64,000 nucleotides of DNA from Laetmonice hystrix (GCA_965235115.1 OZ249436.1:1366001-1430000); one strand, 5' to 3'; positions 18,001 through 64,000 are shown, numbered from the stretch's first letter. The notes: generated from the letters alone by a model not told the origin. Made by a program: numbers and translations.

Positions 18001-19215
18001 GTTTTCGCAGTGGACGAAAAATATAATTCCGCGTTTACTCAGAGCGACCGACGACACGCCATGGACACAAATGGCCAGCGTTCTCCGTGGGACTGGTCAC
18101 GTGGCCGCGTGGGATTCTGGGACTAGATGCGGTTGTCATTAACCATTGTCAGCTGAGATGGTGCCTAATGCTCGAGTCGTGTTGCGCGCCACGTGCGGGC
18201 CTCTGGCCGTCGGAGACGATCAGGTGGCCACCGGGGACAGCGGACCGTAACGAGAGTTGATGTGGCCTCAAGGCTTCCGCACGGGCTCAGGGGTGTAATA
18301 AAGGTTGTAGGGACCGTAGACGACAGACAGAGGAGTATTGACAGCGGCCTTGGTGTGTCTGGCTGGATTAACACCCGCCAAAAGACCACTGGCGGACCTC
18401 CATATCCGGTCCACCCACACCTACCCAAGCTCCCCTAATCTGGCCTAGCAAGTCGGATTGACTAACTTTTGAGAAATTAAAAGGCTAATGATGGTGGTAA
18501 TTACTAGGTTTTTCCTGATCAGAACTATTTTAGGAGCTGACATGCCAGGTTCTTCCACAGCAATAGAAGCTAGCTATGATTTTATACCCTTGATCACAAG
18601 GGTTGAAGAAAAACCTAGTAAGTCTAAAAATGGATCAAAGTAATTTTCTTCAAAAAATGGGCTTGCTAGGTTTTTCTAGATCAGGGAAGCAATAGTGTCG
18701 TAGTAGGTCAAGGCCGGGGGATACACATACCCTCTGGTAATTCTGGATAATGTGCCCTTTTGTCAAGTGCCCTCTCTGAATCTCGGACTGTCCCTAGCAC
18801 TTGTCAAGAAGCTCCTAGTCAAGAAGAAGAGGACGAAGAAGAGGAGGAAGAAGGAGGGGAGGAAGAAGAGCGTTCCTTGTTGATTTACTCCGACTAGCCA
18901 AGCAAGGCTTTGCTTATTTCATTTAGACATAATTCTCTTCAAGGTAATTTCTCTCAGACAATCCTCCCCATTTTGGTGTAATCGGCTTTAAGAAGAGAGG
19001 CTCAAAGTTCCTTTTCCTGAGTTCACTTCAAAACATCAAATAGGTTCTGAATGTGTAGATCGGAACCGGATGAACACTAAATTATCGATGGGCTAAGGTA
19101 TCATACACAGTCGTTCAATGAAGCCTATTTCTGACATTTATAGAGGACAGAAAAAGGTCTTGGTGATGAACTTTTTAGATTTGACCATAACATATTGAAT
19201 TCATTTAAATTGCAG

Positions 19216-37092: not shown

Positions 37093-39123
37093 ACTTACAT
37101 GGTGTTAGAACGACTCACACAACTATAGCCACCACTCCTGTGACTACCAGGAACGGGAAGGCGAGAATCAATGTGAGACTTACATGGTGTTAGAACGACC
37201 CACACAACTATAGCCACCACTCCTGTGACTACCAGGAACGGGAAGGCGAGAATCAATGTGAGACTTACATGGTGTTAGAACGACCCACACAACTACAGCC
37301 ACCACTCCTGTGACTACCAGGAACGGGAAGGCGAGAATCAATGTGAGACTTACATGGTGTTAGAACGACCCACACAACTATAGCCACCACTCCTGTGACT
37401 ACCAGGAACGGGAAGGGGAGAATCAATGTGAGACTTACATGGTGTTAGAACGACCCACACAACTATAGCCACCACTCCTGTGACTACCAGGAACGGGAAG
37501 GCGAGAATCAATGTGAGACTCACATGGTGTTAGAACGACCCACACAACTATAGCCACCACTCCTGTGACTACCAGGAACGGGAAGGCGAGAATCAATGTG
37601 AAACTTACATGGTGTTAGAACGACCCACACAACTACAGCCACCACCCCTGTGACTACCAGGAACGGGAAGGCGAGAATCAATGTGAGACTTACATGGTGT
37701 TAGAACGACCCACACAACTATAGCCACCACTCCTGTGACTACCAGGAACGGGAAGGCGAGAATCAATGTGAGACTTACATGGTGTTAGAACGACCCACAC
37801 AACTACAGCCACCACTCCTGTGACTACCAGGAACGGGAAGGCGAGAATCAATGTGAGACTTAAATGGTGTTAGAACGACCCACACAACTACAGCCACCAC
37901 TCCTGTGACTACCAGGAACGGGAAGGCGAGAATCAATGTGAGACTTACATGGTGTTAGAACGACCCACACAACTATAGCCACCACTCCTGTGACTACCAG
38001 GAACGGGAAGGCGAGAATCAATGTGAGACTTACATGGTGTTAGAACGACCCACACAACTATAGCCACCACTCCTGTGACTACCAGGAACGCTAAGGCGAG
38101 AATCAATGTGAGACTTACATGGTGTTAGAACGACCCACACAACTATAGCCACCACTCCTGTGACTACCAGGAACGGGAAGGCGAGAATCAATGTGAGACT
38201 TACATGGTGTTAGAACGACCCACACAACTACAGCCACCACTCCTGTGACTACCAGGAACGGGAAGGCGAGAATCAATGTGAGACTTCCATGGTGTTAGAA
38301 CGACCCACACAACTATAGCCACCAGTCCTGTGACTACCAGGAACGGGAAGGCGAGAATCAATGTGAGACTTACATGGTGTTAGAACGACCCACACAACTA
38401 CAGCCACCACTCCTGTGACTACCAGGAACGGGAAGGCGAGAATCAATGTGAGACTTACATGGTGTTAGAACGACCCACACAACTACAGCCACCACCCCTG
38501 TGACTACCAGGAACGGGAAGGCGAGAATCAATGTGAGACTTACATGGTGTTAGAACGACCCACACAACTACAGCCACCACTCCTGTGACTACCAGGAACG
38601 GGAAGGCGAGAATCAATGTGAGACTTCCATGGTGTTAGAACGACCCACACAACTATAGCCACCAGTCCTGTGACTACCAGGAACGGGAAGGCGAGAATCA
38701 ATGTGAGACTTACATGGTGTTAGAACGACCCACACAACTACAGCCACCACTCCTGTGACTACCAGGAACGGGAAGGCGAGAATCAATGTGAGACTTACAT
38801 GGTGTTAGAACGACCCACACAACTACAGCCACCACTCCTGTGACTACCAGGAACGGGAAGGCGAGAATCAATGTGAGACTTACATGGTGTTAGAACGACC
38901 CACACAACTATAGCCACCACTCCTGTGACTACCAGGAACGGGAAGGCGAGAATCAATGTGAGACTTACATGGTGTTAGAACGACCCACACAACTATAGCC
39001 ACCACTCCCGTGACTACCAGGAACGGGAAGGCGAGAATCAATGTGAGACTTACATGGTGTTAGAACGACCCACACAACTATAGCCACCACTCCTGTGACT
39101 ACCAGGAACGGGAAGGCGAGAAT
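37093..39123 (-). repeat. 24 x 85-bp tandem copies of an exon end plus splice donor
   Basis: The donor site (acttac on +) recurs every 85 bp from 37093 to 39048; a few copies are mutated. Confidence 0.97.
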
Positions 39124-39215
39124 GAAGGCAAGTCCCCTGCAGAACCCGAGACAGCAGCGGGCTGTCGCACTCCTCTCCCGGCGGGCCCCCTCCTCCTTGT
39201 CATTGGCAGCCGTGT
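39054..39215 (-). CDS. Cys-rich membrane protein (TAXIMIN-like), second coding exon with transmembrane segment
   Basis: Acceptor tttcttgctgccttccctgcag|, 162 nt, phase 1-1, ...ARCCLGFCRGLAFILAFPFLVVTGVVAIVVWVVLTP, donor T|gtaagt. Confidence 0.8.
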
Positions 39216-39629
39216 CTGCAGGGAAGGCAGCAAGAAATATATGACTCTCTGAGAGCCGCCGAGAGTAAGAACGGGCCCTGGGGCAAAACATAAAATATAA
39301 CATTAACAATGAGGATTAAAATCGATTTATAATCCGCTATGTTGAAATCTATTAAGGAACCTGAGCAGATTCTATATACTGTTGGTTCCACGGTACATGA
39401 TGTGCATAATATTATCTCTTAAATTAGATCCATTTTTACACTTTACATATTTTTTAACATAAAGTACGCATCGATCTAGTAGTTTTGAACAACTTTATTC
39501 ACCAACCTTTGCAAGATACCATGCCTCGTATAGAATTAGACCCCATTACCTGTCAGAATTGGTGTACAGTTTCAGGAATGGGAGTTCTGTTGTACATGAA
39601 AAGATGTCAACGTTTAGATCTACACTCAC

Positions 39630-44308: not shown

Positions 44309-44611
44309 GTATTGTAACCATTTACACATGTAGGTAGCCTAGGCCTATAGCAACCAACAGAATAGTTCATCGGCTGAGGTTACTGTAGATGTTTAAATAT
44401 CACACAATACAATATTTCTTTGACCCTAGGTTACTCCACACGAGTCCATCCCTGCCCTCTCTGATCTACAGCCGAGCCTCATCGCCTCCTGGGTAACGAC
44501 TGACGCCAGCCACGTCGCGATTTCTTCCAACTCCGTCACTTTTTGTCCCTCATTCACGTGGAGATATCGTTGCCATCGCCGCGGCAGCAGGAGCGCCCCC
44601 TTGTGGACAGA

Positions 44612-45211
44612 ATGCGCGAGGCTGAGCGACGCCTTCGCAAGGAAAATGATGAGTACCTTGAGAAGATGAAGACGATCCTGACTGCCCCACGGAGGGGCGC
44701 CAGTAAGAGCTCCTACATGCCGGCTGAACTACTCGAGTTCCTCTACATCGGAAACATGGCCGAGGCTCGGAACCCACATCTGTTAAAACGTTTAAAGATT
44801 ACACACGTCTTAAACTGCGCCGGCGATCCTGACGAGGACTTCGATAGAAACAACCCGTATGACTTCGACAGGACCGGGGTGGTCGCCTACGAGGAGTTTC
44901 AAGCTCTGGACAATGATGGCTACCAGATGCTGAAACATTTCCGTAGGGCGCGTAGGTTTATTAACGAGGCTCGGGACAGCGGTGGGCGGGCACTAGTCCA
45001 TTGTCAGTTAGGGGTGAACCGTAGCGGATGTATCTGTATTGCTTACATCATGCTAGAACTCGGTATCACCCTCCTGGAGACCCTCCGGATGGTGAAACTC
45101 CACCGGCCAGTCATACTCTGTAATGAAGGCTTTCAGAAAGAACTTATAGATTTCGGTCGGGAACATGACCTCTTGTACAAGGAGGACACTCCCACGTTGT
45201 CCTTCACCTAA
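44612..45211 (+). CDS. Atypical dual-specificity protein phosphatase (DSPc domain only), ~199 aa, single coding exon
   Basis: Motifs FLYIG, ITHVLNC, acid-loop Asp (ALDN), P-loop VHCQLGVNRS (HCxxGxxRS), IAYIM, RPVILCNEGF. First ATG at 44612, in-frame stops upstream, acceptor ttctttgaccctag at 44429. Confidence 0.92.
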   Translation: MREAERRLRKENDEYLEKMKTILTAPRRGASKSSYMPAELLEFLYIGNMAEARNPHLLKRLKITHVLNCAGDPDEDFDRNNPYDFDRTGVVAYEEFQALDNDGYQMLKHFRRARRFINEARDSGGRALVHCQLGVNRSGCICIAYIMLELGITLLETLRMVKLHRPVILCNEGFQKELIDFGREHDLLYKEDTPTLSFT

Positions 45212-45455
45212 AACCTCCCGTCCATCCGACAGTAGTGGGTCTAGGGGGACTAAGGGGGGCTATACCCCCCTAAAGTCTGGCTTACATTACAAATAACATG
45301 AAGAGCCCCCTTGTCGAGCGTTGGGAGTAGCCCGATATGGTTATAGGCCCCCTCTTACCCCGATAAAAAAAAAGCTGTTGGATTCGCACATGAAATTGCT
45401 ATGGTCCACGGAGAATTTGGCAGAGAGAATGTACTGACATGCTCCAAAAGGGTAT

Positions 45456-45538
45456 AGTTATATTGTAAAGAACTACAGTTATATTGTAAAGAACTACAGT
45501 TATATTGTAAAGAACTACAGTTATATTGTAAAGAACTA
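45456..45538. repeat. 4 x 21-bp tandem repeat
   Basis: agttatattgtaaagaactac. Confidence 0.9.
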
Positions 45539-45997
45539 AGTCTAGGCATGGTTTTCAGACAGCCTGTATTTATTAATGCTCCCGAGGAGTATGATTACGT
45601 GGCCATGAGGTGGCCGGTAGTGAATAGAGCCGACCGTTGTCGCCGTAGCTCTAGGTGTATAGGATATGTACTCTACATGTGAAAGTTTATCAGATTATAT
45701 CTTTTAAACAGATGCGTGCTAATTGCTATGTCTAGATAATATCTATGCACATCAGGTTCAGGACTTATAAACGCTGCTCGAATGGCCTAGAGTGGTGTAC
45801 TACCTGGGACCATAGGGTGTAAATATGGAGAAGGGTATGGTTTACGTTTGTGATGGTGCCGCTGTGGTATGTTTAAAAATATTATCCTGCAGGGCCTAAA
45901 CATCTTGTTATTATTTGTAATTTTAGCTATCATATAGTGATGTATGCTAGTTCATCAGGAAATTATATACACATGCTGTTAGATGTGTGCATTGTTA

Positions 45998-46589
45998 CAA
46001 CCGCTAATGTAATAACGCCCACTATTGTAATAACTGGAGTGCTAGGGGGTACCGGGGAAGTACCACCAGAGTACCGGACAGGACCAGGGGAGCATTTTTA
46101 GGGTACCCTCTGAGTACCCTCTGGGTACCCCCTGGGTACCCAGAGGGTACCAACCGGGGGGTACCCGGGAAATACTACTGGAGTACCGGACAGGACCAGG
46201 TGAGCATTTTGGGGGTACCCTCTGAGTACCATGTGGTACTTCCCTGGTACCCCCTAGCACCCCAGTTATTACAATAGCGGTTGCGTTCGCCAGAATTCGC
46301 AACCGCTATTGTAATAAAACTTTGTTCAAGGGCTACCGACCAGATCGGTACCTAAGGGTACCCAGGGGTACCCAGATGGTACTCAGAGGGTACCCCCAAA
46401 ATGCTCACCTGGTCCTGTCCGGTACTCCAGTAGTATTTCCCTGGTACCCCCCCCCCCCCGGTTGGTACCCTCTGGGTACCCAGAGGGTACTCAGAGGGTA
46501 CCCCAAAAATGCTCCCCTGGTCCTGTCCGGTACTCTGGTGGTACTTCCCTGGTACCCCCCTAGCACCCCAGTTATTACAATAGCGGTTG
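45998..46589. mobile_element. Two oppositely oriented MITE copies forming a ~600-bp inverted repeat
   Basis: TIR caaccgctattgtaataa at four positions; internal accggacaggaccagg versus cctggtcctgtccggt; TA at the outer ends. Confidence 0.75.
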
Positions 46590-47088
46590 TAACAGTGCAT
46601 GCACTGGGCACAACGGTAAATATCGCTCCTTCACAATATAAGTGGTTATATTTTCACAAGGACTGACTGTTGTAGAAAGAAAGTTATGTAGGGAGCCCCC
46701 TAAAAAAAGGGGCAGTCGTCATTTATTAGAAATGTGTATGATAGAACAAGTACTGCGTGTTGGGTTGAAGATTTTATACTGTAGTACTATTTCTTGTAAA
46801 TAAATATCTATTATCCCAGTTCGTTTAACAAAGGAAATGGGATTTTAAAATGGTCTGGCTTCGTCTCCACGTTTCGTATTTCCTATTTCCCCTGTCAGGG
46901 AATTGTATAATATTGCGATGCTCCAGGCTACTCAGTATACCTTCGAAATCTGTCGTATACTGCAGATTCCAACCCTGCTCCCATTCTCAGTGTGTGTGTG
47001 TGTGTGGGGGGGGGGGGGGGTCCCTACTGTATAGCTATATTTGATACATGAAATATGTCGTGTATAGTATGCAGATTTCAATCCTGTT

Positions 47089-48708
47089 CCCATGTTATGT
47101 AAGTTTCCTCACCTAGAGCATTGTAACGTCCATAGCTATCCTTGATACGTGATATCCCATGTTATGTAAGTTTCCTCACCTATAGCATTCTAACGTCCAT
47201 AGCTATCCTTGATACGTGATAGCCCTTGTTATGTAAGTTTTTTCACCTAGCGTCCTAACGTCCATAGCTATCCTTGATACGTGATATCTCACGTTATGTA
47301 AGTTTCCTCACCCAGCATTCTAACGTCCATAGCTATCCTTGATACGTGATATCCCATGTTATGTAAGTTACCTCACCCAGCATTCTACGTCCATAGCTAT
47401 CCTTGATACGTGATATCCCATGTTATGTAAGTTACCTCACCCAGCATTCTACGTCCATAGCTATCCTTGATACGTGATATCCCATGTTATGTAAGTTACC
47501 TCACCCAGCATTCTAACGTCCATAGCTATCCTTGATACGTGATATCCCATGTTATGTAAGTTACCTCACCTAGCATTCTAACGTCCATAGCTATCCTTGA
47601 TACGTGATATCCCATGTTATGTAAGTTACCTCACCCAGCATTCTACGTCCATAGCTATCCTTGATACGTGATATCCCATGTTATGTAAGTTTCCTCACCT
47701 AGCATTCTAACGTCCATAGCTATCCTTGATACGTGATATCCCTTGTTATGTAAGTTACCTCACCCAGCATTCTAACGTCCATAGCTATCCTTGATACGTG
47801 ATATCCTATGTTATGTGAGTTACCTCACCCAGCATTCTGTGTCCATAGCTATCCTTGATACGTGATATCCCATGTTATGTAAGTTACCTCACCCAGCATT
47901 CTAACGTCCATAGCTATCCTTGATACGTGATATCCTATGTTATGTGAGTTACCTCACCCAGCATTCTGTGTCCATAGCTATCCTTGATACGTGATATCCC
48001 ATGTTATGTAAGTTTTCTCACCCAGCATTCTACGTCCATAGCTATCCTTGATACGTGATATCCCAGGTTATGTAAGTTTTCTCACCCAGCATTCTACGTC
48101 CATAGCTATCCTTGATACGTGATATCCCATGTTATGTAAGTTTCCTCACCTAGCATTCTAACGTCCATAGCTATCCTTGATACGTGATATCCCATGTTAT
48201 GTAAGTTTCCTCACCTAGCATTCTACGTCCATAGCTATCCTTGATACGTGATATCCTATGTTATGTGAGTTACCTCACCCAGCATTCTACGTCCATAGCT
48301 ATCCTTGATACGTGATATCCCATGTTATGTAAGTTACCTCACCCAGCATTCTGTGTCCATAACTATCCTTGATACGTGATATCTCATGTTATGTAAGTTA
48401 CCTCACCCAGCATTCTACGTCCATAGCTATCCTGGATACGTGATATCCCATGTTATGTAAGTTTCCTCACCTATAGCATTCTAACGTCCATAGCTATCCT
48501 TGATACGTGATATCCTATGTTATGTAAGTTTCCTCACCTAGCGTTCTAACGTCCATAGCTATCCTTGATACGTGATATCCCATGTTATGTAAGTTTCCTC
48601 ACCTAGCGTTCTAACGTCCATAGCTATCCTTGATACGTGATATCTCATGTTATGTAAGTTTCCTCACCTAGCGTTCTAACGTCCATAGCTATCCTTGATA
48701 CGTGATAT
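47089..48708. repeat. Minisatellite, 64-65-bp unit, ~25 copies
   Basis: cccatgttatgtaagtttcctcacctagcattctaacgtccatagctatccttgatacgtgatat. Confidence 0.97.
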
Positions 48709-49178
48709 CGTATATGTACGCTCGGGTTTGTACTTCTCCGCGATCAATGGGGTTCTCTGTGTGAGTATCGCATTCCACAGCCGTAATTCATTATGCAAGT
48801 TACAATGACGGTAATGGCAATGAGGACAGGGAGACATACTTTGTAGCCAGACAGACAGACACACATACAGACAGACAGACAGAGAGACAGACAGAGGCAG
48901 AGAGACACAGAAAGATGTAGAAAGAGAGAGCAAAAAGTATAGTTGCATAAAGTAGAGCATTCATCTTTATTTTCTTCTTCTTCTTCTTCTTTCCTTTTTG
49001 CGTTTAAAATCAATAAAGAAGAAAAAAAACAATCTGGTCTGGCGTCTGAGACACGAGAACCCATGGCACTGGTAGCCACCATTTGGCGCTATTCCACCGC
49101 GACCTCCGCCGCTGACGGAGACTATGGTTTGTATTACCACGTCACTTTACAATAATCTCATTGGGTATCATAACATCC

Positions 49179-52100
49179 TTACTAGTTTACCTTTATCATC
49201 AGATTAATGTTTGCATGCAATCATGGTTACTAGTTTACCTTTATCATCAGATTAATGTCTGCATGCAATCATGGTTACTAGTTTACCTTTATCATCAGAT
49301 TAATGTTTGCATGCAATCATGGTTACTAGTTTACCTTTATCATCAGATTAATGTTTGCATGCAATCATGGTTACTAGTTTACCTTTATCATCAGATTAAT
49401 GTTTGCATGCAATCATGGTTACTAGTTTACCTTTATCATCAGATTAATGTCTGCATGCAATCATGGTTACTAGTTTACCTTTATCATCAGATTAATGTTT
49501 GCATGCAATCATGGTTACTAGTTTACCTTTATCATCAGATTAATGTTTGCATGCAATCATGGTTACTAGTTTACCTTTATCATCTGATTAATGTTTGCAT
49601 GCAATCATGGTTACTAGTTTACCTTTATCATCTGATTAATGTTTGCATGCAATCATGGTTACTAGTTTACCTTTATCATCAGATTAATGTTTGCATGCAA
49701 TCATGGTTACTAGTTTACCTTTATCATCAGATTAATGTTTGCATGCAATCATGGTTACTAGTTTACCTTTATCATCTGATTAATGTTTGCATGCAATCAT
49801 GGTTACTAGTTTACCTTTATCATCTGATTAATGTTTGCATGCAATCATGGTTACTAGTTTACCTTTATCATCTGATTAATGTTTGCATGCAATCATGATT
49901 ACTAGTTTACCTTTATCATCTGATTAATGTTTGCATGCAATCATGGTTACTAGTTTACCTTTATCATCTGATTAACGTTTGCATGCAATCATGGTTACTA
50001 GTTTACCTTTATCATAGATCTGATTAATGTTTGCATGCAATCATGGTTACTAGTTTACCGTTATCATCTGATTAATGTTTGCATGCAATCATGGTTACTA
50101 GTTTACCGTTATCATCTGATTAATGTTTGCATGCAATCATGGTTACTAGTTTACCTTTATCATCTGATTAATGTTTGCATGCAATCATGGTTACTAGTTT
50201 ACCGTTATCTGATTAATGTTTGCATGCAATCATGGTTACTAGTTTACCTTTATCATCAGATTAATGTTTGCATGCAATCATGATTACTAGTTTACCTTTA
50301 TCATCTGATTAATGTTTGCATGCAATCATGGTTACTAGTTTACCTTCATCATCTGATTAATGTTTGCATGCAATCATGGTGACTAGTTTACCTTTATCAT
50401 CTGATTAATGTTTGCATGCAATCATGGTTACTAGTTTACCTTTATCATAGATCTGATTAATGTTTGCATGCAATCATGGTTACTATAGTTTACCTTTATC
50501 ATCTGATTAATGTTTGCATGCAATCATGGTTATTAGTTTACCTTTATCATCTGATTAATGTTTGCATGCAATCATGGTTACTAGTTTACCTTTATCATCT
50601 GATTAATGTTTGCATGCAATCATGGTGACTAGTTTGTAAACCTTTATCATCTGATTAATGTTTGCATGCAATCATGGTTACTAGTTTACCGTTATCATCT
50701 GATTAATGTTTGCATGCAATCATGGTTACTAGTTTACCGTTATCATCTGATTAATGTTTGCATGCAATCATGGTTACTAGTTTACCTTTATCATAGATCT
50801 GATTAATGTTTGCATGCAATCATGGTTACTAGTTTACCTTTATCATCTGATTAATGTTTGCATGCAATCATGGTTACTAGTTTACCTTTATCATAGATCT
50901 GATTAATGTTTGCATGCAATCATGGTTACTAGTTTGTAAACCTTTATCATCTGATTAATGTTTGCATGCAATCATGGTTACTAGTTTACCTTTATCATCT
51001 GATTAATGTTTGCATGCAATCATGGTTACTAGTTTACCTTTATCATCTGATTAATGTTTGCATGCAATCATGGTTACTAGTTTATCGTTATCATCTGATT
51101 AACGTTTGCATTCAATCATGGTTACTAGTTTACCTTTATCATCTGATTAACGTTTGCATGCAATCATGATTACTAGTTTACCTTTATCATCTGATTGCAT
51201 GCAATCATGGTTACTAGTTTACCGTTATCATCTGATTAATGTTTGCATGCAATCATGGTTACTAGTTTACCGTTATCTGATTAATGTTTGCATGCAATCA
51301 TGGTTACTAGTTTACCTTTATCATCTGATTAATGTTTGCATGCAATCATGGCTACTAGTTTATCGTTATCATCTGATTAATGTCTGCATGGAATCATGGT
51401 TACTAGTTTACCGTTATCATCTGATTAATGTTTGCATGCAATCATGGTTACTAGTTTGTAAACCTTTATCATCTGATTAATGTTTGCATGCAATCATGGT
51501 TACTAGTTTACCGTTATCATCTGATTAATGTCTGCATGCAATCATGGTTACTAGTTTACCGTTATCATCTGATTAATGTTTGCATGCAATCATGGTTACT
51601 AGTTTACCTTTATCATCTGATTAATGTTTGCATGCAATCATGGTTACTAGTTTACCTTCATCATCTGATTAATGTTTGCATGCAATCATGGTTACTAGTT
51701 TACCTTTATCATCTGATTAATGTTTGCATGCAATCATGATTACTAGTTTACCGTTATCATCTGATTAATGTTTGCATGCAATCATGGTTACTAGTTTACC
51801 TTTATCATCTGATTAATGTTTGCATGCAATCATGGTTACTATAGTTTACCTTTATCATCTGATTAATGTTTGCATGCAATCATGGTTACTAGTTTACCTT
51901 TATCATCTGATTAATGTTTGCATGCAATCATGATTACTAGTTTACCCTTATCATCTGATTAATGTTTGCATGCAATCATGATTACTAGTTTACCTTTAAC
52001 ATCTGATTAATGTTTGCATGCAGTCATGATTACTAGTTTACCCTTATCATCTGATTAATGTTTGCATGCAATCATGGTTACTATATTTTACCTTTATCAT

Positions 52101-52204
52101 CTGATTAATGTTTGCATGCAATCATGGTTACTAGTTTACCGTTATTATCTGATTAATGTTTGCATGCAATCATGGTTATTATAGTTTACCTTTATCATCT
52201 GATT
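49179..52204. repeat. Minisatellite, 48-bp unit, ~63 copies
   Basis: actagtttacctttatcatctgattaatgtttgcatgcaatcatggtt. Confidence 0.97.
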
Positions 52205-52293
52205 CGAAAGTGATTCTCAACTTCAAAGCATTTCACTTATTTATTTATCCTCCAAGTATAGCGATAGATAGCAAGATTATTCACGTAGAACGG

Positions 52294-53247
52294 TAGACCT
52301 GCCAAAACTCCCGCTTTGGCGGGAGAATTCCCGAATTTGGGGCTGTTTTGCCTTTTTCTCCCGATCTCTCGACTGATAGGTGACATCTCCCGCCACCATC
52401 ATCGTAACTTCCAGGGCTACAATCTCCCTGTCACCAAGGAGCTCCTGGTAAAAGTCAAGGAAGCTGAAAGCAGGAAAACTAACTTCTCTAAGGGTGAATT
52501 CGTATTCTGTATTAAAGGAAATCTGTCCGAAAATTGAAATAAACGCAGTCAATTCAACAAAACTTGAGTAAAAACAATTATTGTAAGGGGTTTCTAGCAG
52601 TCTGGTACCATGGCTCGTCCATATCGACAATAATTTTAATTAATTAATTAAGTGTTTACCTATTTGGCTAGAGACGAAAGCACGCGAATCAAATCATGCC
52701 CTTATTTGGATTATGGGGGAGGGCGGGCGGAGCTGTGCGAGGCAACGCTTGCGCCCAATCCCGTTGCTTAGTAACGACCGCCCTAACAATGCTAACGCGG
52801 CCATGGCGGTCGTTCTCGGTTCTCAGTCCATTGAGATGGACAATATGGGATGTTATCGTCTCATTATGGCTCATAATCAACAACAGACCTAGCACCACAA
52901 TGTTATGGATATGACAGAATGTTTTATCAGTCCAGTGGGATAGATTCAAGATCAGGTAAGCTTGAAATACGCGGATTCGTAAGAGATGGGGGACAAAACT
53001 CGGCGGCCGTAGGGTGATCGATTACCTTTAATCTGTATAACTCAGTGTAAATATAAAAGTTTTGCTATTCAAAGACCTTTGTATTTCTGTATTAATTTTC
53101 ATCTCCACCAAAATAAGTATACATCAATACGTGTATTTACAATACAAGTAATCACTGGTACGGTTTCACCGCGACCTATCTCCCTCATAAGATTACTTTA
53201 AGTGCGAGATTCTCCCGCTTGGTGGGCAAAACGAGCTGGCAGGTCTG
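52294..53247. mobile_element. Putative non-autonomous hAT-like element
   Basis: Ends tagacctgcca / tggcaggtctg with subterminal gcgggaga motifs; flanks share only tagaa. Confidence 0.45.
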
Positions 53248-53715
53248 TAGAAACTGTACATCAATCAAAAGACGACAACGGTAACCGCACCGTTTAACTT
53301 CAATGCGTATAGTTTAGGCGACAAGAAAGAGCAACTATATCTCATATATGTAAAAGTCCTTTTGCAAAATCACAGTGTCTGAACACTTCCAAGGAGATAC
53401 ATCTCTGATTGCCTTCACCATATCCACGATTATACAAGAGGGATATAGAAAATATTGTGTTAATATAATATCTGATCTTCCGCTGACACAGTGACACAAT
53501 GCGACATCGAATACAATCAAAAACCTCAAATCTATAGCATAACGTTCAAGATGCAAGGGCAGACCCAATATTTATTTTGTAAAATGGGTTCCAACTACTA
53601 TAGGCCTGTAATAGGAATAAAGATGGCCAAAAAGAGAGCGTTCCGCCTAAAAATGGAGTTCAACAGGAGTCGATTTAAGCAGCAGGATATGACCCCGACA
53701 GCCCTCAAGAAATAA

Positions 53716-54852
53716 CCATGGTGTGCCTGCCAGACTACCAGGTACACGTCGGGGTGTATGTGCCTGCCAGACTACCCGGTACACGTACACGTCATGGTGT
53801 GCCTGCCAGACTACCCGGTACACGTCGAGGTGTATGTGCCTGCCAGACTACCAGGTACACGTCGGGGTGTGCCTGCCAGACTACCCGGTACACGTCGAGG
53901 TGTGCCTGCCAGACTACCCGGTACACGTCGGGGTGTGCCTGCCAGACTACCCGGTACACGTACACGTCATGGTGTGCCTGCCAGACTACCCGGTACACGT
54001 ACACGTCATGGTGTGCCTGCCAGACTACCCGGTACACGTACACGTCGGGGTGTGCCTGCCAGACTACCCGGTACACGTACACGTCATGGTGTGCCTGCCA
54101 GACTACCCGGTACACGTACACGTCATGGTGTGCCTGCCAGACTACCCGGTACACGTACACGTCATGGTGTGCCTGCCAGACTACCCGGTACACGTAGGCT
54201 ACACGTCATGGTGTGCCTGCCAGACTACCCGGTACACGTCATGGTGTGCCTGCCAGACTACCCGGTACACGTACACGTCATGGTGTGCCTGCCAGACTAC
54301 CCGGTACACGTCATGGTGTGCCTGCCAGACTACCCGGTACACGTCGAGGTGTGCCTGCCAGACTACCCGGTACACGTACACGTCGGGGTGTGCCTGCCAG
54401 ACTACCCGGTACACGTACACGCCATGGTGTGCCTGCCAGACTACCCGGTACACGTACACGCCATGGTGTGCCTGCCAGACTACCCGGTACACGTACACGT
54501 CATGGTGTGCCTGCCAGACTACCCGGTACACGTACACGTCATGGTGTGCCTGCCAGACTACCCGGTACACGTACACGCCATAGTGTGCCTGCCAGACTAC
54601 CCGGTACACGTCGAGGTGTGCCTGCCAGACTACCCGGTACACGTCGGGGTGTGCCTGCCAGACTACCCGGTACACGTACACGTCATGGTGTGCCTGCCAG
54701 ACTACCCGGTACACGTACACGTCATGGTGTGCCTGCCAGACTACCCGGTACACGTACACGCCATAGTGTGCCTGCCAGACTACCCGGTACACGTCGAGGT
54801 GTGCCTGCCAGACTACCCGGTACACGTCGGGGTGTGCCTGCCAGACTACCCG
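53716..54852. repeat. Minisatellite, 33/39-bp unit, ~30 copies, overlapping the cGLR stop codon
   Basis: gtgtgcctgccagactacccggtacac(gtacac)gtcatg. Confidence 0.97.
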
Positions 54853-55111
54853 TTCTGTGTCTGGCCCTGGTTTTCCCGTGAGAAATGTGCCCTGTATATG
54901 TGATCGAGCGCGGTGCGCTGCCCTGTCCGGATGAGGCCGTTGAGGAGGGAGCCCGGACAGCGATGGTGTCCGTACCGGCGGGTCGTGTCCAGTACAGCCC
55001 GGAGAGGATTATCTGTCTGTAGTTTACAGTGTATCGTCCTGGCTGTGGGCCCCTGACAGCCACCAGCCACCGCCGGGAACCGCCATGCCAGGTCCGCCAG
55101 CAGCGCCGCCT
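54846..55111 (-). CDS. cGLR gene, probable terminal coding exon; spliced product ~874 aa
   Basis: Strong acceptor ttctgccgtttccccag|AG, GC-rich. Phase-1 join gives EAALLADLAWRFPAV...ENQGQTQNG*. Exon lengths 2216+143+266=2625 nt. Confidence 0.7.
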
Positions 55112-56275
55112 CTGGGGAAACGGCAGAACCAAAGCAAGGCAGGTTACATGAGAACGATGAAAATATCAAAAGAATCAAGGACTTTTGTCAACACGTTTTA
55201 TTATTATCCTGAATTCACAACAGGCATTTGTGTCGAGACTTCCTTGAATCTTCGGCGGAAATTCTGCACTGGGAGGATTTTGTAGACTCAAACTGAACAC
55301 AACAGGCGATAATATCCACCTCTGTTTGTGTCCAATTCATATTTCCGAAAAATGATAACCCGTGTGCGATAATTGATTTAAATGATCTCGGACCTTGGCG
55401 GAAATTATCTTTAAACGATATTGTCCAGGGGATTGTTACAAAATGTAGAAAATAAAGTTCGGCCTGAATGGTGAACTTGCGGCTCATTAAGGATAGCTGA
55501 TATCTAATATGATAGCTGCACTTCCAAGACCTATCCATATCGGTGACTTTATCCCCTGATGGATGAACTATCTATCTGCTATAGTGACCTTCACGCCATA
55601 GGGTCAAATGAAATGAGCATATTATGAGGAAACGTGAAAAATCGGTATTTCAAAGAACTTTTGCTGTTTTCATAAAGAGATCCTTCATTAATATTGCTTG
55701 GTAAACAAAGACAGACTTATCAGTTTCATTTTGTGTGAGAAATCGAAGTTTATGAAGCTCCCTTGCCCGCTTTTCTGGCGATTTCGTAAAATATTTTTTA
55801 GGTGGCATTCTGATGCCGGGCGATCGAGTGCAACTGCTGAATTGTTTACAACTAAGCGAAGCACGTGACTAAGCACATGCAGAGAGTGCACACGCAGGAT
55901 ATGACACAGTATGCAATTACACGGGTTAATGGGAGGTTGTCTATAGCAAATTGTGGCGGGAGATGTGCTATCGGGAGAAATCTATAGGTTTGGTCGTATA
56001 GAATCTACTTGCGCTGCATACGCAACGAAAACACGTCGGAGGACAAAATGCTGTGGTAGGATTATTTACTTGGATCCCTAGTACACGATCATGTTGGATA
56101 ATTGCCGGAAATCCTCCAAAACGTGTTTCATAGCATGCCCCTTTAATGGAAGAGCAGAGCCTGACGCAGACCTAGATTTAGAAGGGCAACTTGATCACAG
56201 GGATGAATTCACACCCTTAAAAGGGCACCAGCTCATGAAAAGGACCCTTTTCCCACATGGTGAGGTCCCTACTGG

Positions 56276-56308
<33 letters not shown>

Positions 56309-56373
56309 GGAGCTACTCCTTCTGCCCCCCCCCCCCCCCAGGTACGACCCTGAAGAGTATGTTAACGGCCTAC

Positions 56374-56516
56374 CGTCGGCCTCAGGCGTGCTCGACCCGG
56401 ACCCAGGATGACGTTCGAACGGGAACTTGTGAACAAATTGTGTGATTTGTCTCGTCCCGCCAGGAGTGAACACAAGCCGGATAGATCCGATCACATTCAA
56501 GTCTTCGGCCAGCACT
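56374..56516 (-). CDS. cGLR gene, second coding exon (143 nt, phase 2 to phase 1)
   Basis: Acceptor cttttgtttttggtacctgctag|AGTG and donor GACG|gtaggc. Reads (I)VLAEDLNVIGSIRLVFTPGG...STPEAD, in phase with both neighbouring exons. Confidence 0.75.
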
Positions 56517-56520
56517 CTAG

Positions 56521-56729
56521 CAGGTACCAAAAACAAAAGGTCATTTAATGAATTTATCATCACATTGATAAAAAAAAAGTGACACTGACATCTTCTGCCA
56601 ACGCTAACAGGTACCAAAAACAAAAGGTCATTTAATGAATATTTATCATCATATTGATAAAAAAAAAGTGACACTGACATCTTCTGCCAACGCTAACAGG
56701 TACCAAAAACAAAAGGTAATTTAATGAAT
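56521..56729. repeat. ~2.4 x 87-89-bp tandem repeat filling the first cGLR coding intron
   Basis: caggtaccaaaaacaaaagg at 56521, 56608 and 56697. Confidence 0.9.
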
Positions 56730-56746
56730 ATATAGCCTATACTTAC

Positions 56747-58962
56747 ATAGCCCATCCTTCACCTCGCTTGACCGCTTCCTCTAGACCTTGCTGGGCATAG
56801 CACTCGCCCGTGACGACTCGGTGTGCGAACTTTGTCACGTGGGCAAGGTCCTTGCACAGTAGCCGTTCATTGATGTCTTCCACAAACCAAGCATTCTCCA
56901 GTGAACCGGCCTGCAGGTCCCGAAGATAACTGGTCAAAGCAGCAGCCAGACGCTCCGTAGACTCACACGGCTGCGTCTTGTTGGGCGTCTTCTTTTCTTC
57001 TACAAATGTTCTCAAAACACACACAAGCCGTTCAGCTGTCTTCCCAGGTTCCCAGTGCTTTTCGCCTTTGTGACTTTCAAGTTCTTCCACAGCTGCACGT
57101 TGAAGCGACTGACAAGTGGTTCGTTCAAGTGACTGACTGGCTGAGAACATTTGGATCTGTTCCAAGATGAAGTTTATGAGACGTAGTAAACGGTCAGCAC
57201 CTTGCGTTCTCACAGTATCCACCGAACTAATCACTCCGCGCACAGACTTCCGGTCAATTAACTCTGTTTTCATTGGTCGCGTGTCAAGGAATCCCAGAAC
57301 TTCCGTGAAGACAAGGTTCAGATATGTAACCTGCCTTTCAGTAAAGTTGAATTCCGAGTCATCCTTATCAATACAAGCCTTTTGTTTGGCTATCTGACAA
57401 AACCAAAGTGATGCAAGATCGTTTTCAAAAGCAATGCTAGACTCAAGGTTAGTGTCAATGCCAATTTGAAATGTTTGTTGCTTTGAGAAACCGTGCATCC
57501 GCCTGAGACAATTCGTAAGAATATTGAAATCACTGGTGCACAGATTTAATGTCAGGCCCTTCTTCAACAGAACATTAAGTTCAGAGAAGAAATAGCTTCT
57601 CATGTGTTTCCGCTGCAAAGCTTTTAATAGACTTCTCACTATGCTGAGAACACGGACACTGACACCTGACTCGAGCCAGTCGCCGACGTCTGAATAGGTC
57701 TCCAGCTCAAATAGAAACAGCGTCTTCAAAGCATAAGAACTTATAAGATGAAGGGGACTCGAGTTTGGTTCAGAGGTTGATGGGGGGATAAGTACGTCAA
57801 AATCCGTCCCGAAATCCTTAAAAGAAGATGGGTCTGACAAAAGTCCTGTTATTATTTTAGTTATCCTCATCACTTTAGCAGGGATGCTGCAATGGTCATA
57901 ATGTGTCATCAGTTCCATCTCAGCTGTGGAGTTTGAAATACGCCACAGCGAATCCTTCGCCTCACATACGATACTTTCGTGCGGTCCAGTTCCCACGACA
58001 TAAAATCCCTTCTGAGACGCGCGGTAAAAGTTCACAGCATCGACATGAGACAACGCAATTCGGTCCGGAAAGTCGCTCCGCGTTGGCCACCCCACAAAGC
58101 CAATGCTGAGGGTGAGGTCGACAGATACGTTGTGCGACTCGGGAAGTTCCTCCGTGGGAGGGACATAGATTTCAAGTCTTACGGCTGGTCCGTCCTGTAA
58201 GACCTTGATAGAGAAATCTCTCGGCTCCGGGAACACGTCCTGCTCCGGGTCACCGATCCCGATAAATACGTGCTGCTTGGAACCAATATTAAAAATATCC
58301 GACAATGTCCCGACATCAAGGACCTTTCCTGATGCCCCTGGAAGGTCACACTCATTGACGTTTTCCATTGAAACTGGTATAGCCTTGACTACCCAGCGAA
58401 TCAGCTCAAAGAACCGCTGTCGTATTTTGTGGGGGAGCAGGCAACCATCAGCATCCATGAATTCTGACCAGTCCTTGAACAGAGACGGTCGGCTGCGTTC
58501 GTTAACTTGAACACGTGCAAAACCTGATGGAACTGTTTCCGGGTCGTCGAGAATACGACACGGGGGATTCTGGGAGCTGCCATCAAGCGCTGGGCACGAC
58601 ACCTGATTCAGTCGTATCATGAAGTCATACTCGTCCGGTCTGTTGATCTTGTAATGTTCATACGTACTTCCGGTTGGGAGGACAAACTTGGAGGCAAAAC
58701 GCGCGTCGAGTTTACCAGCTGACGTCACAAGTCGCTGTACCAGACGTTCAATGGTCGCTTCGATACTTCCTGGCACATCCATGCCCAGGAGGTTCGGCCC
58801 GCCGCCGCTAGGTGTCATGGTGCCGTAGTAACTGTTCAGTGCATGGTTACATGTTCGTTCTATGTTCGTGAAATATCGGTTTAGATATTCAAGCTCATCA
58901 TTGTCGAAGCTAAGATCGATTTCTGGCAGAACGTAACGCCTTGGGCCGTCGTTTTCTCCCAT
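56747..58962 (-). CDS. cGAS-like receptor (cGLR / Mab21-family nucleotidyltransferase), main coding exon
   Basis: 739-aa ORF with GSTYEHYKINRPDEYDFM (hGS-x-[DE]h[DE] catalytic motif), VSVDLTLSI (third acidic residue), WP, FYVV, LWRISNSTAE, ISSYALKTLFL and SYFFSELNVL, in cGAS/Mab21 order. The ORF end ATG-TAA overlaps a perfect donor (GCTAT|gtaagt, intron starts at 56746). Confidence 0.93.
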
Positions 58963-59794
58963 CTCTAGGACTAGATAATAACCTATTTAAATGAAATGAC
59001 AATCAAACCAACAGATCAAGAACTTGATATTTCAACACAGGCTGGCGCTAGAACATTTTGTGAAGTTAATTACAATAATGGCTTAACTTACAATCGAGCC
59101 TAGATTTAATGGTACGGTTGGGTAGGCCTACATTTGGTAGTCAACTGAATTCTGTTGTGCTTGGTCAGCGAAATAAGGGCCAGTCTAACAAAAGGAGGAT
59201 TTTTACTTTCTGGCAACTGGTAATAAGCATAAATCCATAGATTGGGTTAATCTCGACACTAATTACGTTCTTGCATACGGTCACATGTGTTTGTCCGAGT
59301 ATTTTAATTGTGCACAAAAACTGCGACGTCGTGTTTCTATAATTTGTCACAGAGCGCTATTACATATTATCCTCCAGTATTGAGTAGCTTTGATCTAAAT
59401 GAACTGGGCGTACCTTATTTCCAGGGAGTATAGTCCTAAGCAACGATTTCCTCTTAATGTCAACGTATGCAAGTCTTCCCAAACACAACGCAGATATTAC
59501 CTACAGTTTACACAATGTTTTAAATCGCCGCAGTGGAGCGAACAATACACGTATGTACAACCCACCTGTCGTCTAGGCACGGGCAGTTGTCCGGTTGTTC
59601 TGTACGAACAGATCGTAAGTATACTCTGATCATGACAAGAGATCCAACTGCATGGCTAACCGTGAGACACCTTACATATACAGGTAGGCCTACACCGTGT
59701 GTCTGCGTGTGTAGGCCGCACTCATCCGTGACCATGCACACTCAGCGGCTGGGGAATTTTGTTGGATCCTTTAAAAAAGTGGGTCACGCGGAGG

Positions 59795-60715
59795 GTGTCC
59801 CGCCACGGAACCAGCCAGGGTATATCTCTATACCGTACGGTCAGACAAGGTGTCCCGACACGGAACCAGCCAGGGCAGGAGGGTATATCTCTATACGGTC
59901 AGACAAGGTGTCCCGCTACGGAACCAGCCAGCGCAGGAGGTATCTCTATACGGTCAGACAAGGTGTCCCGCCACGGAACCAGCCAGCGCAGGGTATATCT
60001 CTATACGGTCAGACAAGGTGTCCCGATATCTCTATACGGTCAGACAAGGTGTTCCGATATCTCTATACGGTCAGACAAGGTGTCCCGCTACGGAACCAGC
60101 CAGGGCAGGAGGGTATATCTCTATATGGTCAGACAAGGTGTTCCGATATCTCTATACGGTCAGACAAGGTGTCCCGATATCTCTATACGGTCAGACAAGG
60201 TGTCCCGATATCTCTATACGGTCAGACAAGGTGTCCCGATATCTCTATACGGTCAGACAAGGTGTCCCGATATCTCTATACGGTCAGACAAGGTGTTCCG
60301 ATATCTCTATACGGTCAGACAAGGTGTCCCGATATCTCTATACGGTCAGACAAGGTGTCCCGATATCTCTATGCGGTCAGACAAGGTGTTCCGATATCTC
60401 TATACGGTCAGACAAGGTGTTCCGATATCTCTATACGGTTAGACAAGGTGTCCCGACACGGAACCAGCCAGGGCAGGAGGGTATATCTCTATACGGTCAG
60501 ACAAGGTGTTCCGATATCTCTATACGGTCAGACAAGGTGTTCCGATATCTCTATACGGTCAGACAAGGTGTTCCGATATCTCTATACGGTCAGACAAGGT
60601 GTGCCGGCACGGAACCAGCCAGGGCAGGAGGGTATATCTCTATACGGTCAGACAAGGTGTGCCGGCACGGAACCAGCCAGGGCAGGAGGGTATATCTCTA
60701 TACAGTCAGACAAGG
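59795..60715. repeat. Composite minisatellite, 31-bp core with an optional ~29-bp insert
   Basis: tatctctatacggtcagacaaggtgtcccga with or without cacggaaccagccagggcaggagggta. Confidence 0.95.
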
Positions 60716-61359
60716 TTGTTCGGCCATATCATTGGGTTCTCTGTTTTGTAATTGTTTTGCGTATTTACAGAAAAGACAACTGTTTCAGTGGTGGATCCAG
60801 CATTTTGATAAGGGGGGGGGGCACCTAAAAAAAAAGTTAGCTCGCTACGCTCGGCATGATTTGATTGTGCCTGTATTACACCCGTACACCCACACCAATT
60901 CTATTCCAATACTAATTTATATATTATTAAATATAGTCATAACATCTTCATAAAATAAACCCTGAAAATCTATTGAATATACAAGTTTTAACCTGCCAGT
61001 AGATGTTTCGTGAGGTAGAACTGTGGCTGTTGTCTCTATACACGCGGGTAACACGTATTGTCATTGTTCTGAATGCTACTGTGCCAGTTGAACATAATGT
61101 AGGCAGTAGCCTGCCAAATGCTGACTGGTAGAAACTCTATATTTATAATATTCTGTGCCAAATTACAGTCCACATGACCATGGGAGTCGAGGACCTAACT
61201 CCACGTTACACAGTGAGAGTATTTGGTGCACCGTCTTGTGTTAGCTGACTATAACAGCAGCGCTGGAATCGAGATCTTCTAAGAGTTCTGTCTTGCTGTC
61301 AGTTTCCTAAACCGATATCAATATGATGATCCCTGTCATTATGTGATCCCACTACATGT

Positions 61360-62240
61360 GGTTACATCATGACAGGGGATCTCACTACATGCAGTATGCG
61401 GTTACATAATGACAGGGGATCTCACTACATGCAGTAGGCGGTCACATAATGGCAGAGGATCTGACTACATGCAGTAGGCGGTCACATAATGAAAGGGGAT
61501 CTCACTACATGCAGTAGGCGGTCACATAATGACAGGGGATCTCACTACATGCAGTAGGCGGTCACATAATGACAGGGGATCTCACTACATGCAGTTGGCG
61601 GTCACATGGCAGGGGATCTCACTACATGCAGTAGGCTGTTACATGGAAGGGGATCTCACTACATGCAGTAGGCGGTCACATAATGACAGGGGATCTCACT
61701 ACATGCAGTAGGCTGTTACATGGAAGGGGATCTCACTACATGCAGTAGGCGGTCACATAATGACAGGGGATCTCACTACATGCAGTATGCGGTCACATAA
61801 TGACAGGGGATCTCACTACATGCAGTAGGCGGTCACATAATGACAGGGGATCTCACTACATGCAGTATGCGGTTACATGGCAGGGGATCTTACTACATGC
61901 AGTATGCGGTCACATAATGACAGGGGATCTCACTACATGTAGTAGGCGGTCACATAATGACAGGAGATCTCACTACATGCAGTAGGCGGTCACATAATGA
62001 TAGGGGATCTCACTACATGCAGTATACAGTTACATAATGATAGGGGGCATCACTACATGAGTAGGCGGTAACAAAATGATAGGTGATATCACTACCCTGT
62101 ACATCATGCAAGATGTGGTCACGATAGGGGTATCTCACAAGATCTAGTATGTACCCCACTACGTCCAGGAACTTACATAATGACAGGGCATCTCACTACA
62201 TGCAGTAGAAGGTTACATAATGACAGGGCATCTCACTCAC
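61360..62240. repeat. Minisatellite, 37-40-bp unit, ~20 copies, degenerate at the right end
   Basis: cacataatgacaggggatctcactacatgcagtaggcggt. Confidence 0.93.
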
Positions 62241-63557
62241 AAATTTCCCTGATGACTAAATGCAGGATTCTGACACATGAAAACAGAAGGTCCCATATGA
62301 CGTTTATTGTCAACGGAAATTTTTCGAACGTAAGACTATTCAATAGGAATTTGATAACAAAAACACGAGAAACGTCAGCGACCGGCTTCGACTCGGAATT
62401 TTGCTTCCTGTTCGTGCCCAGATGAGCCCAGATACAGTCAACAATATTTTGTCAAACGGTCCGTTTTTTCTACCAGTGCTGTTGTTTACACGGTGCCAAC
62501 CAGTGACTATGGACAGCCAGCAAAACACGAAATAGGTGACCTACCTGGGGGGGGGGGGGGGCGGGGGGGCGGGGGGGGGTCCCACTCTCCCATGAGCCAC
62601 TGCACGCCGAGAGTCGGGGAATCCCAGCCTTCCATTCGCCCAATGAGAGGCGCTCACTCAACCATATTGCTGGAGCATAAAATGAAAGCCCCGCGCCGTG
62701 TCGAGAGAAAACTTGTCGTGACAGCAGGTTTATTTTACATCCCAGTACCTGTAAAACCAGGAATCCATGTGTCCGTATTGCGTAATCAAAACAATGAAAA
62801 CACGCATTACGCATACATGGAATCACTCCACTTGTTTTCATTGATGTTGATGAATACGCATTACGCACTACGCCCACACCACGTGGCTTCCTGTGCCTAG
62901 TCTAACCTCATCTAGGGTCGCTTCTAAACGTGCTCAGCCACACGATGTGTCAGCTGTACTAGTTACAAACATTATACTCAAATATCTTACTTATATGCGG
63001 CACGATTGTTGAATGGTTAAATACAATAATTCCCATTCAATATATCAGTACATAATATTCACAGTGTTCAGTAGCTGTCAGTATTCTTGATGTTTTAATC
63101 AATTACAAATGAAACAAAATCGGTTGTTCTCTTTCTGTCGCCTTCACTTTATTTGCTATTGTACAGCACCACCACCACCACCACGAGTCAAGTATCCGGT
63201 ACCATTGCCCTGTTTTTATAAACTTGTAAGGTGTAAGGTGACACAGACACACAAACATGGCAAAGTGAACAGTGGATCATTAAAACAACATGTTCCGATT
63301 CAGTTCCACACGGCACAAGATCTAAATACAAATACATGTGTACATTCACTGACTTCGGAGAGTGATACTCCATTGCATACAGTTTAGCTATCCATTTTTA
63401 AAGAACCAACGGCAGTAAACTGTTAACAATAAGCCATTCAATAGGTTTATGTCGGTAAAACTCGAGTGTGACGGCTCAAGTATGTCTCCCTGAAAATATG
63501 CTCCGTGCCTCGACGACATAATGTTCACCAGTGAAGTCGACGAATATTATTAAACTC

Positions 63558-64000
63558 TATAATCTAACCGTCCACCTTGGAGCACCCGTCAAGGGCCCGG
63601 GAGGGTGACTAGTTGAATCCCCACACGTTCATACAGAACCTGTGTATAATCTAACCGTCCACCTTGGAGCACCCGTCAAGGGCCTGGGAGGGTGACTAGT
63701 TGAATCCCCACACGTTCATACAGAACCTGTGTATAATCTAACCGTCCACCTTGGAGCACCCGTCAAGGGCCCGGGAGGGTGACTAGTTGAATCCCCACAC
63801 GTTCTACCACAACCTGTGTATAATCTAACCGTCCACCTTGGAGCACCCGTCAAGGGCCCGGGAGGGTGACTAGTTGAATCCCCACACGTTCTACCAGAAC
63901 CTGTGTATAATCTAACCGTCCACCTTGGAGCACCCGTCAAGGGCCCGGGAGGGTGACTAGTTGAATCCCCACACGTTCTACCAGAACCTGTGTATAATCT
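63558..64000. repeat. Minisatellite, 87-bp unit, at least 5 copies (runs off the window)
   Basis: tataatctaaccgtccaccttggagcacccgtcaagggcccgggagggtgactag... Confidence 0.95.

Follow-up and report, generated by a model that had tools for sequence, protein, structure and literature searches.

A cGAS-like gene of Laetmonice hystrix with aligned catalytic residues and a probable core-less half-copy of its own fold

The cGAS-like receptors (cGLRs) Sp-cGLR1 (Protein Data Bank (PDB) code 8GJY) and Cv-cGLR1 (PDB code 8GJW) are described in Li 2023 as being activated by double-stranded RNA (dsRNA) and double-stranded DNA (dsDNA), respectively, and as producing cyclic UMP-AMP. Both carry a catalytic triad, have no zinc thumb and consist of a single unit, and 87% of the cGLRs catalogued in that study are given as single-domain. 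The same account assigns an isoelectric point (pI) above 8.5 to the cGLRs that sense DNA or RNA, reports some acidic cGLRs that are active without added ligand, and proposes triggers other than nucleic acids. Human MB21D2 is also described with a triad and a non-basic groove (PMC8410604), and MAB21L1 lacks the third catalytic acid and the acceptor pocket, as judged by the residue roles given in PMC4897736; the literature consulted on these two proteins reports no second half-unit. A catalytic and a deficient unit occur together in OAS2, which is described as myristoylated and as regulated by its dead unit (10.1101/2025.01.28.635220). Here we describe a gene on the minus strand of a 64,000-nucleotide (nt) stretch of DNA from Laetmonice hystrix (GCA_965235115.1 OZ249436.1:1366001-1430000), referred to below as the window. 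The predicted protein contains a complete cGLR unit (unit 1) followed by a core-less second unit (unit 2). We tentatively read it as a nucleotide-messenger synthase that would be switched by a non-nucleic-acid input and that carries a built-in dead half-unit.

Unit 1 and its active site comprise the following features, where human numbering was counted on the PDB chain and the residue roles of the human acceptor and donor pockets are those given in PMC4897736.
57478..58914, minus strand: unit 1, residues 17-495, the full cGAS/Mab-21 fold, with Pfam and structure matches.
58624..58674, minus strand: the T97-G98-S99 loop and the metal ligands E111 and D113, from the alignment with the chain of PDB 7ftn (human T211, G212, S213, E225 and D227).
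58201..58374, minus strand: a family-specific acidic insert of about 50 residues (approximately residues 195-254), inside the nucleotidyltransferase (NTase) lobe.
58117..58119, minus strand: the third catalytic acid, D282, aligned with human D319.
57919..57945, minus strand: R341, S343, S345 and E348 (human R376, S378, S380 and E383), the guanine acceptor pocket and the donor sugar contact.
57886..57906, minus strand: the short segment that replaces the zinc thumb, from the alignment with human cGAS chains.
57721..57741, minus strand: Y410 and K413 (human Y436 and K439), donor nucleotide binding.

That unit 1 has a cGLR fold is virtually certain. Pfam matches both Mab-21 (residues 100-353, E-value 3.8e-16) and Mab-21_C (residues 397-466, E-value 3.2e-13) above the cut-offs, and among solved structures the closest sequences are those of coral Sp-cGLR1 and human cGAS. 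The structure model (predicted local distance difference test (pLDDT) 82.8, predicted template modelling score 0.86) aligns with Cv-cGLR1 over 339 residues (Z 19.7, root mean square deviation (rmsd) 3.1) and with Sp-cGLR1 over 328 residues (Z 19.4, rmsd 3.2) in the range of residues 22-491. Human MB21D2 and MAB21L1 score Z 17.1 and 17.8. A preliminary description of the locus had called for the Pfam search and had claimed an intact set of cGAS-like motifs and a zinc thumb reduced to a short segment. Its five motifs all lie in the open reading frame (ORF) that starts at 58962 (residues 98-114, 279-287, 340-345, 353-359 and 408-414), each residue of the triad and of the donor and guanine pockets has its aligned counterpart in human cGAS, and the replacement of the zinc thumb is borne out by the alignment. 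The vertebrate thumb is therefore absent here, as it is from other non-vertebrate cGLRs according to PMC8410604. In addition, K369 aligns with a lysine of Sp-cGLR1 that we equated by eye with human K414.

The sequence also agrees with most of the features by which Li 2023 defines cGLRs. An h[QT]GS motif is followed within 8-20 residues by [DE]h[DE]h, with E111 and D113 situated 11 residues after T97-G98-S99 and a proline preceding the threonine; the third acid, D282, lies in h[DE]h; and structural homology to cGLR and CD-NTase proteins is predicted. The spacer before the third acid, for which that study gives 50-90 residues, is 168 residues long between D113 and D282 (91 in human cGAS). This limit was not strictly applied, because Li 2023 lists barnacle orthologues with the same insert and because most of the other cGLR-like rows compared also have a spacer above 90, and the gene is therefore filed as a cGLR variant. 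The insert occupies about 58 profile positions, compared with 10 residues in Sp-cGLR1, and is kept in insect members at 28-47% identity.

A phmmer search against 1.84 billion representatives returned 115 hits, and its top block consists of the relatives P0002-P0005, at 34-68% identity, and many uncharacterised insect proteins. Two further homologue searches, with 8000 candidates scored in each, added only a barnacle protein, and the range of the family is at least that given here. In a metagenome scan 32 loci matched locally, at 24-50% identity, and no match extends past residue 467. Common to the family are the acidic insert, with its spacer of 168, and a C-terminal half. The barnacle members, KAF0291777.1 and XP_043201284.1 from Amphibalanus amphitrite and XP_037076832.1 from Pollicipes pollicipes, have an intact triad and the same insert and spacer; in unit 2 they are shorter and have diverged further. 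Table S1 of Li 2023, which lists predicted cGLRs, includes two barnacle members, neither of which is in its 140-protein screen table, and for KAF0291777.1 its domain table shows a single Mab-21 hit, at residues 114-467. The insect members are Mab-21_C proteins of 790-1300 residues with the same order of parts, the same insert and longer tails (XP_018907269 from Bemisia, XP_014294082 from Halyomorpha, XP_017778096 from Nicrophorus and XP_032517507 from Danaus). They span Odonata, Ephemeroptera, Orthoptera, Thysanoptera, Hemiptera, Hymenoptera, Coleoptera and Lepidoptera. No fly was found among the named family members; Drosophila CG15865 is merely listed as a Mab-21-domain protein in PMC1784063.

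The active site divides this family in two. Residues were counted in 16 insect rows, those left of the 23 in alignment A3 once 7 duplicates, fragments or probable mispredictions had been taken out. G98, S99, E111, D282, K369 and K413 are present in all five non-insect rows and D113 in four, and the barnacle keeps the full triad. None of the insect rows has G98, an acid at position 282, R341 or S343, and one has K369; the G-S loop and the third acid are lost in 16 of 16 and the full triad in all, although the insect columns near the G-S loop are less sure. W520, Q544 and Y547, situated outside unit 1, are found in every insect row. H306, H328, C333 and H354 (residues 306-354; 58047-57901, minus strand) occur in five of five non-insect rows and in 16, 10, 11 and 11 of the 16 catalytically dead insect rows, respectively, and may form a metal-binding or structural site specific to the family.

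Two trees were built. For the first, 83 core regions were taken from 105 proteins of at least 300 residues, 16 near-duplicates and three more were dropped and P0004 was added by hand, which left 65 rows; the second has 25 rows. Both are midpoint-rooted only, with no topology test. The family has a support of 99 in the larger tree and 94 in the smaller, the insects have 100, and the barnacle is sister to the insects with 89 and 98. The simplest history is a single loss of the active site on the insect line, with a separate change of D113 to Q in P0005. Three cGLR-like proteins whose active sites are degenerate, namely P0029 (from the hemichordate Glandiceps), P0053 and P0062, adjoin the family on a long branch in both trees; the unit 2 profile did not match them.

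Since the active-site residues are kept together in the non-insect members and lost together in insects, catalysis is indicated, and unit 1 is, on balance, probably competent, as far as its residues tell. The active synthase put forward in the preliminary description gains weight from this selective retention. Several points weigh against it. The G-S loop (residues 99-107) has a pLDDT below 50 in the model, a probable effect of an alignment made up largely of insect rows. Human K362, which we take to have a functional role, aligns with G/T here. The non-insect relative P0005 has Q at D113, and with the insects persisting without the triad this makes catalysis dispensable within the family. Triad-bearing MB21D2 is described as silent with nucleic acids (PMC8410604), and three shrimp Mab21 proteins are reported to have made no cGAMP (PMC12928593).

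The main alternative, which we regard as unlikely, is that the protein is a nucleotide-binding scaffold that would bind a nucleoside triphosphate or a product-like ligand, make no messenger and act through partners, in the manner of MiD49/51, MAB21L1 and shrimp Mab21. The last are described as kinase enhancers that activate IKK-epsilon (PMC12928593). The build of the family is kept across eight insect orders with the triad in none of the 16 rows, and the D113Q change of P0005 fits a scaffold as well. Among the 34 family rows listed, 13 (barnacle and insect) start with M-G-x-x-x-S/T and 16 end with T-x-L/F. We take these to suggest lipid anchoring and PDZ-type binding, that is, membrane and partner targeting. 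The barnacle proteins start with M-G-x-x-x-S, and those of Amphibalanus end in T-K-L and are about 80 residues longer; neither the start nor the end is found in the window protein or P0002-P0005. Binding alone, however, explains less well why the three acids and the donor and acceptor pockets are kept jointly over 34-68% identity and lost jointly in insects. The pattern of MAB21L1/2, in which the third acid is replaced by Q and the acceptor pocket is missing, is also not seen here, as D282, R341, S343 and S345 are all present.

The region that follows unit 1 contains two parts.
57364..57453, minus strand: a linker helix, residues 504-533, with the family-invariant W520.
56896..57351, minus strand: unit 2, residues 538-689, a second spine helix and a helical C-lobe, with no NTase beta-lobe and with the donor-binding residues lost.

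Unit 2 very likely arose by duplication of the spine helix and the helical lobe, the catalytic beta-lobe being absent. It is about 150 residues long, and a stretch of about 310 residues in unit 1 corresponds to about 20 here. Folded alone, residues 495-739 are all helical (pLDDT 83.6). The best match of this model among 48,161 solved chains is MAB21L1 (Z 10.6, rmsd 3.4), with 133 residues aligned from residues 541-688 onto chain positions 1-354. The alignment takes in the spine helix at the N-terminal end and the lobe at the C-terminal end, and omits the beta-lobe. Rows 1-40 of the 50 in this fold search all belong to the nucleotidyltransferase superfamily (cGAS, CD-NTase, MiD49, OAS, TUTase and poly(A) polymerase), and the first unrelated fold scores Z 6.1. 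Profile comparison points the same way. Using HHalign, the non-insect profile of residues 530-739 matched the C-lobe of the protein itself when set against the unselected residues 10-495 (E-value 1.3e-4, score 38.8 versus at most 17.7 in 30 shuffles), and matched its own spine with an E-value of 4.5e-5. Against the spine and C-lobe joined, segments that were picked after the fold result, the probability is 94.8 and the E-value 5e-8. The non-insect unit 2 profile also matched 41 cGLR-like proteins outside the family (E-value 1e-5, score 42.6 versus at most 21.1 in 25 shuffles), and an insect-weighted profile matched the protein's own spine and lobe (E-value 1.5e-5). In the profile alignments, unit 2 has N, Q and Q at the positions of the donor-binding K, Y and K.

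Other results speak against the duplication. The Z score of 10.6 is below the level of about 13 that serves as a warning for helical bundles, the insect-weighted profile did not match the outside cGLR profile (E-value 0.39), and for residues 495-739 there was no Foldseek match with an E-value below 0.001, no Pfam match and no match in a phmmer search of PDB sequences. The ESM Atlas returned Mab-21_C clusters at 0.83 and below, as a lead only. Modelling the two units as a complex returned a score of 0.00, with the alignment unused and the partner fold uncertain, which counts neither way.

The arrangement is distinct from the tandem multi-cGLR fusions of Li 2023, as the chain does not hold two complete cGLR domains. 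OAS2 resembles it in mode of working only, with an active and a dead unit of related fold in one chain. It belongs to a different family (Z 8.1 to unit 1), contains the domain in full in both units and is a dsRNA sensor, whereas the second unit of the window protein lacks the beta-lobe and follows the active unit, and the protein is acidic. Likewise, Sp-cGLR1 and Cv-cGLR1 have neither the insert nor a second unit.

The charge of the protein bears on what might switch it. The pI is 5.33 for residues 1-500, 5.76 for all 874 residues and 4.98-5.77 in the four relatives P0002-P0005. The spine helix of unit 1 has two basic and five acidic residues, and both spine helices are net acidic. Neither the high pI nor the basic spine groove of nucleic acid sensors is therefore present, and the basic DNA groove of human cGAS is likewise missing. 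Activation by DNA or RNA is unlikely because the protein is acidic, and the trigger of an active enzyme, to go by these values, would probably be something other than a nucleic acid. The dsRNA and dsDNA proposed in the preliminary description are probably, on the same grounds, the wrong trigger. An ordinary nucleic acid-sensing cGLR, with dsRNA or dsDNA as input, a cyclic dinucleotide as output and a C-terminal part that perhaps widens the binding surface, is accordingly an improbable alternative. The solved structures closest to the window protein are indeed the dsDNA sensor Cv-cGLR1 and the dsRNA sensor Sp-cGLR1, R366 and K369 are present in all five non-insect rows, and residues 740-874 are basic (pI 9.4), but a pI of 5.3, compared with more than 8.5 in the known sensors, and the acidic spines argue against it.

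For the synthase that we favour, unit 1 would be a metal-dependent producer of a nucleotide second messenger. Because the guanine pocket of cGAS is kept, a guanine-containing product is the first guess, most likely a cyclic dinucleotide. The switch might be a protein or another basic ligand in contact with the acidic insert or the spine, and the dead half-unit might serve as a built-in regulator or a partner-binding platform, comparable with the inactive domain of OAS2. According to PMC8410604, the side of the cGAS fold formed by the spine and the lobe binds ligands and partners. Unit 2 keeps this side and drops the catalytic one, so a regulatory or docking role is its natural reading. In insects the scaffold role alone would remain. 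An active nucleotidyltransferase with another reaction, making a linear oligonucleotide or transferring to a protein or an RNA end, is quite improbable. In the insert and the extra unit the protein departs from known cGLRs, and these parts could position a macromolecule as the acceptor; the superfamily takes in OAS, TUTases and poly(A) polymerases. The fold of unit 1, however, scores Z 15-20 with cGLRs and Z 8-9 with OAS1 and TUTases, and the guanine acceptor pocket is kept.

The gene model consists of three exons, which run into a minisatellite.
56747..58962, minus strand: exon 1, residues 1-739, with the complete cGLR unit, the linker helix, the core-less second unit and further helices.
56517..56746, minus strand: intron 1, 230 nt, phase 2, GT-AG, mostly 2.4 copies of an 89-bp repeat.
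56374..56516, minus strand: exon 2, 143 nt, a conserved family block.
55112..56373, minus strand: intron 2, 1262 nt, phase 1, GT-AG, containing a repeat element of high copy number (about 55617-56146).
54846..55111, minus strand: exon 3, 266 nt, a conserved family block with a provisional 3' end.
53717..54852, no strand assigned: a 39-bp minisatellite of 30.6 copies; the predicted stop codon and a possible GT donor both come from its edge unit.

Left unspliced, the minus-strand ORF starting at 58962 gives 739 residues, with a GTAAGT donor overlapping its stop codon (56745-56743). Once spliced, the segments 58962-56747, 56516-56374 and 55111-54846 read 874 residues in frame with no internal stop. 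By homology, exons 2 and 3 can be assigned to the gene with considerable confidence. A hidden Markov model of insect relatives (n=21) scores 382 bits on exon 1, 393 with exon 2 added and 423 with exon 3, and the frame of exon 3 ranks second among the 2650 frames of the window against it (E-value 5e-8). With the barnacle protein XP_043201284 (RefSeq, 956 residues), exon 3 shares 23 of 52 residues (44%, E-value 9e-13), exon 2 gives an E-value of 4e-4, junction 1 has a spacing of 16 residues in both, and the joined model is 36% identical across residues 17-858. The blocks of exons 2 and 3 are found in both barnacle and insect proteins, in order and in frame over 859 columns. The preliminary description had taken the apparent stop for a splice donor followed by two in-phase exons, and this homology supports it. 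Along with the two exons, its fold, catalytic residues and missing zinc thumb stand; it had overlooked the insert of about 50 residues, the second unit and the dead insect members.

Three candidates were tried at the first junction and gained no profile score: acceptor 56692 (decoy AG 56693), with a stop after 19 residues; acceptor 56603 (decoy AG 56604), in frame with 29 additional residues; and skipping of exon 2. The repeat of intron 1 (56517-56731, minus strand) has duplicated the acceptor along with the opening bases of exon 2, and carries ATTAAA in each copy. Three such signals and the two decoy acceptors inside intron 1 count against a spliced end, as does the score of exon 2 alone against the insect sub-profile (E-value 0.48, rank 2). 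All four ORF-called relatives P0002-P0005 end at the same column, in W-A-M or W-A-R, probably because read-through into a GTAA donor would give such an end. Three DNA runs (contigs from one sample) span both introns, and among the rows listed there is no joint at the predicted junctions, which is uninformative on splicing. The predicted stop codon (54848-54846) is part of the edge unit of the minisatellite, beside the possible donor; the length of 874 residues is therefore provisional and the C terminus of the predicted protein uncertain. Full-length relatives extend 60-200 residues further and often end in T-x-L. No fourth exon was found by profile among the 2650 frames of the window, nor did an insect downstream-block profile and a scan for frames ending in S/T-x-L/V/F/I detect anything credible in 45200-54850. 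Upstream, at 58962-64000, none of the four ATG-G starts gives M-G-x-x-x-S. It is thus very improbable that the end is wrong in either direction, with the 739-residue form as the main product, as the signals in intron 1 and the shared stop of the four relatives might suggest, or with a fourth exon past the minisatellite, as the longer relatives and the stop in a repeat might suggest, when exons 2 and 3 match other proteins in frame and in order and no further exon appears.

The gene looks intact and constrained. Among the 22 coding variants listed from the DNA runs, 16 are synonymous and six are non-synonymous. Unit 1 has eight synonymous variants and one non-synonymous, and both of those in exon 2 are synonymous. 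The other five amino acid changes fall in unit 2 (residues 639-685; 56908-57047, minus strand), a cluster that reflects either relaxed constraint or a divergent haplotype.

Other features of the window were noted. The element in intron 2 reaches a summed contig depth of up to about one million, compared with about 60 for the gene, and has loose ends with TTAAAGG; no clear terminal inverted repeat was found, and it is probably a non-autonomous DNA transposon. A lower-copy repeat element (59070-59240, depth about 5,000-12,000) lies just upstream of the start codon. At 44504-45211 on the plus strand, a frame of 235 residues, apparently in one exon, encodes a complete dual-specificity phosphatase domain (Pfam DSPc, E-value 2e-28). 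The region 52290-53245, with a frame of 120 residues at 52277-52639, is flanked by sequences that by eye are similar and inverted, and is probably a repeat element and not an exon. A minus-strand frame of 116 residues (38965-39315) has two cysteines followed by a hydrophobic stretch, ends near a possible donor and has no Pfam match; it possibly represents one exon of a gene for a small membrane protein. On the plus strand, 19144-20274 holds a frame of 376 residues with Thr/Cys/Ser/Asn repeats and then a hydrophobic stretch, which is either a tandem repeat or a mucin-like exon.

The triad-bearing cGLR is itself a further member of a catalogued group. Judged from listings, no mention was found in the open-access literature of the core-less second unit or of the split between enzyme in barnacles and pseudoenzyme in insects. 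The family is acidic, shows conservation and not recent expansion, and carries a half-duplicated fold, and the analysis provides a fold assignment for a conserved, unannotated insect protein family. A wider picture, which we consider doubtful, is that of an old invertebrate family of protein-switched active synthases, in which the empty half-copy would act as an internal pseudo-dimer or sensor and which in insects would have become a membrane-anchored pseudo-receptor. With the active site kept in barnacles and in the animal studied here and lost in insects, the same build can be compared with and without catalysis, and messenger function with scaffold function. If the protein is indeed switched by another protein and carries an internal half-copy, it would represent a new regulation of a cGAS-fold enzyme and a natural pair of enzyme and pseudoenzyme.

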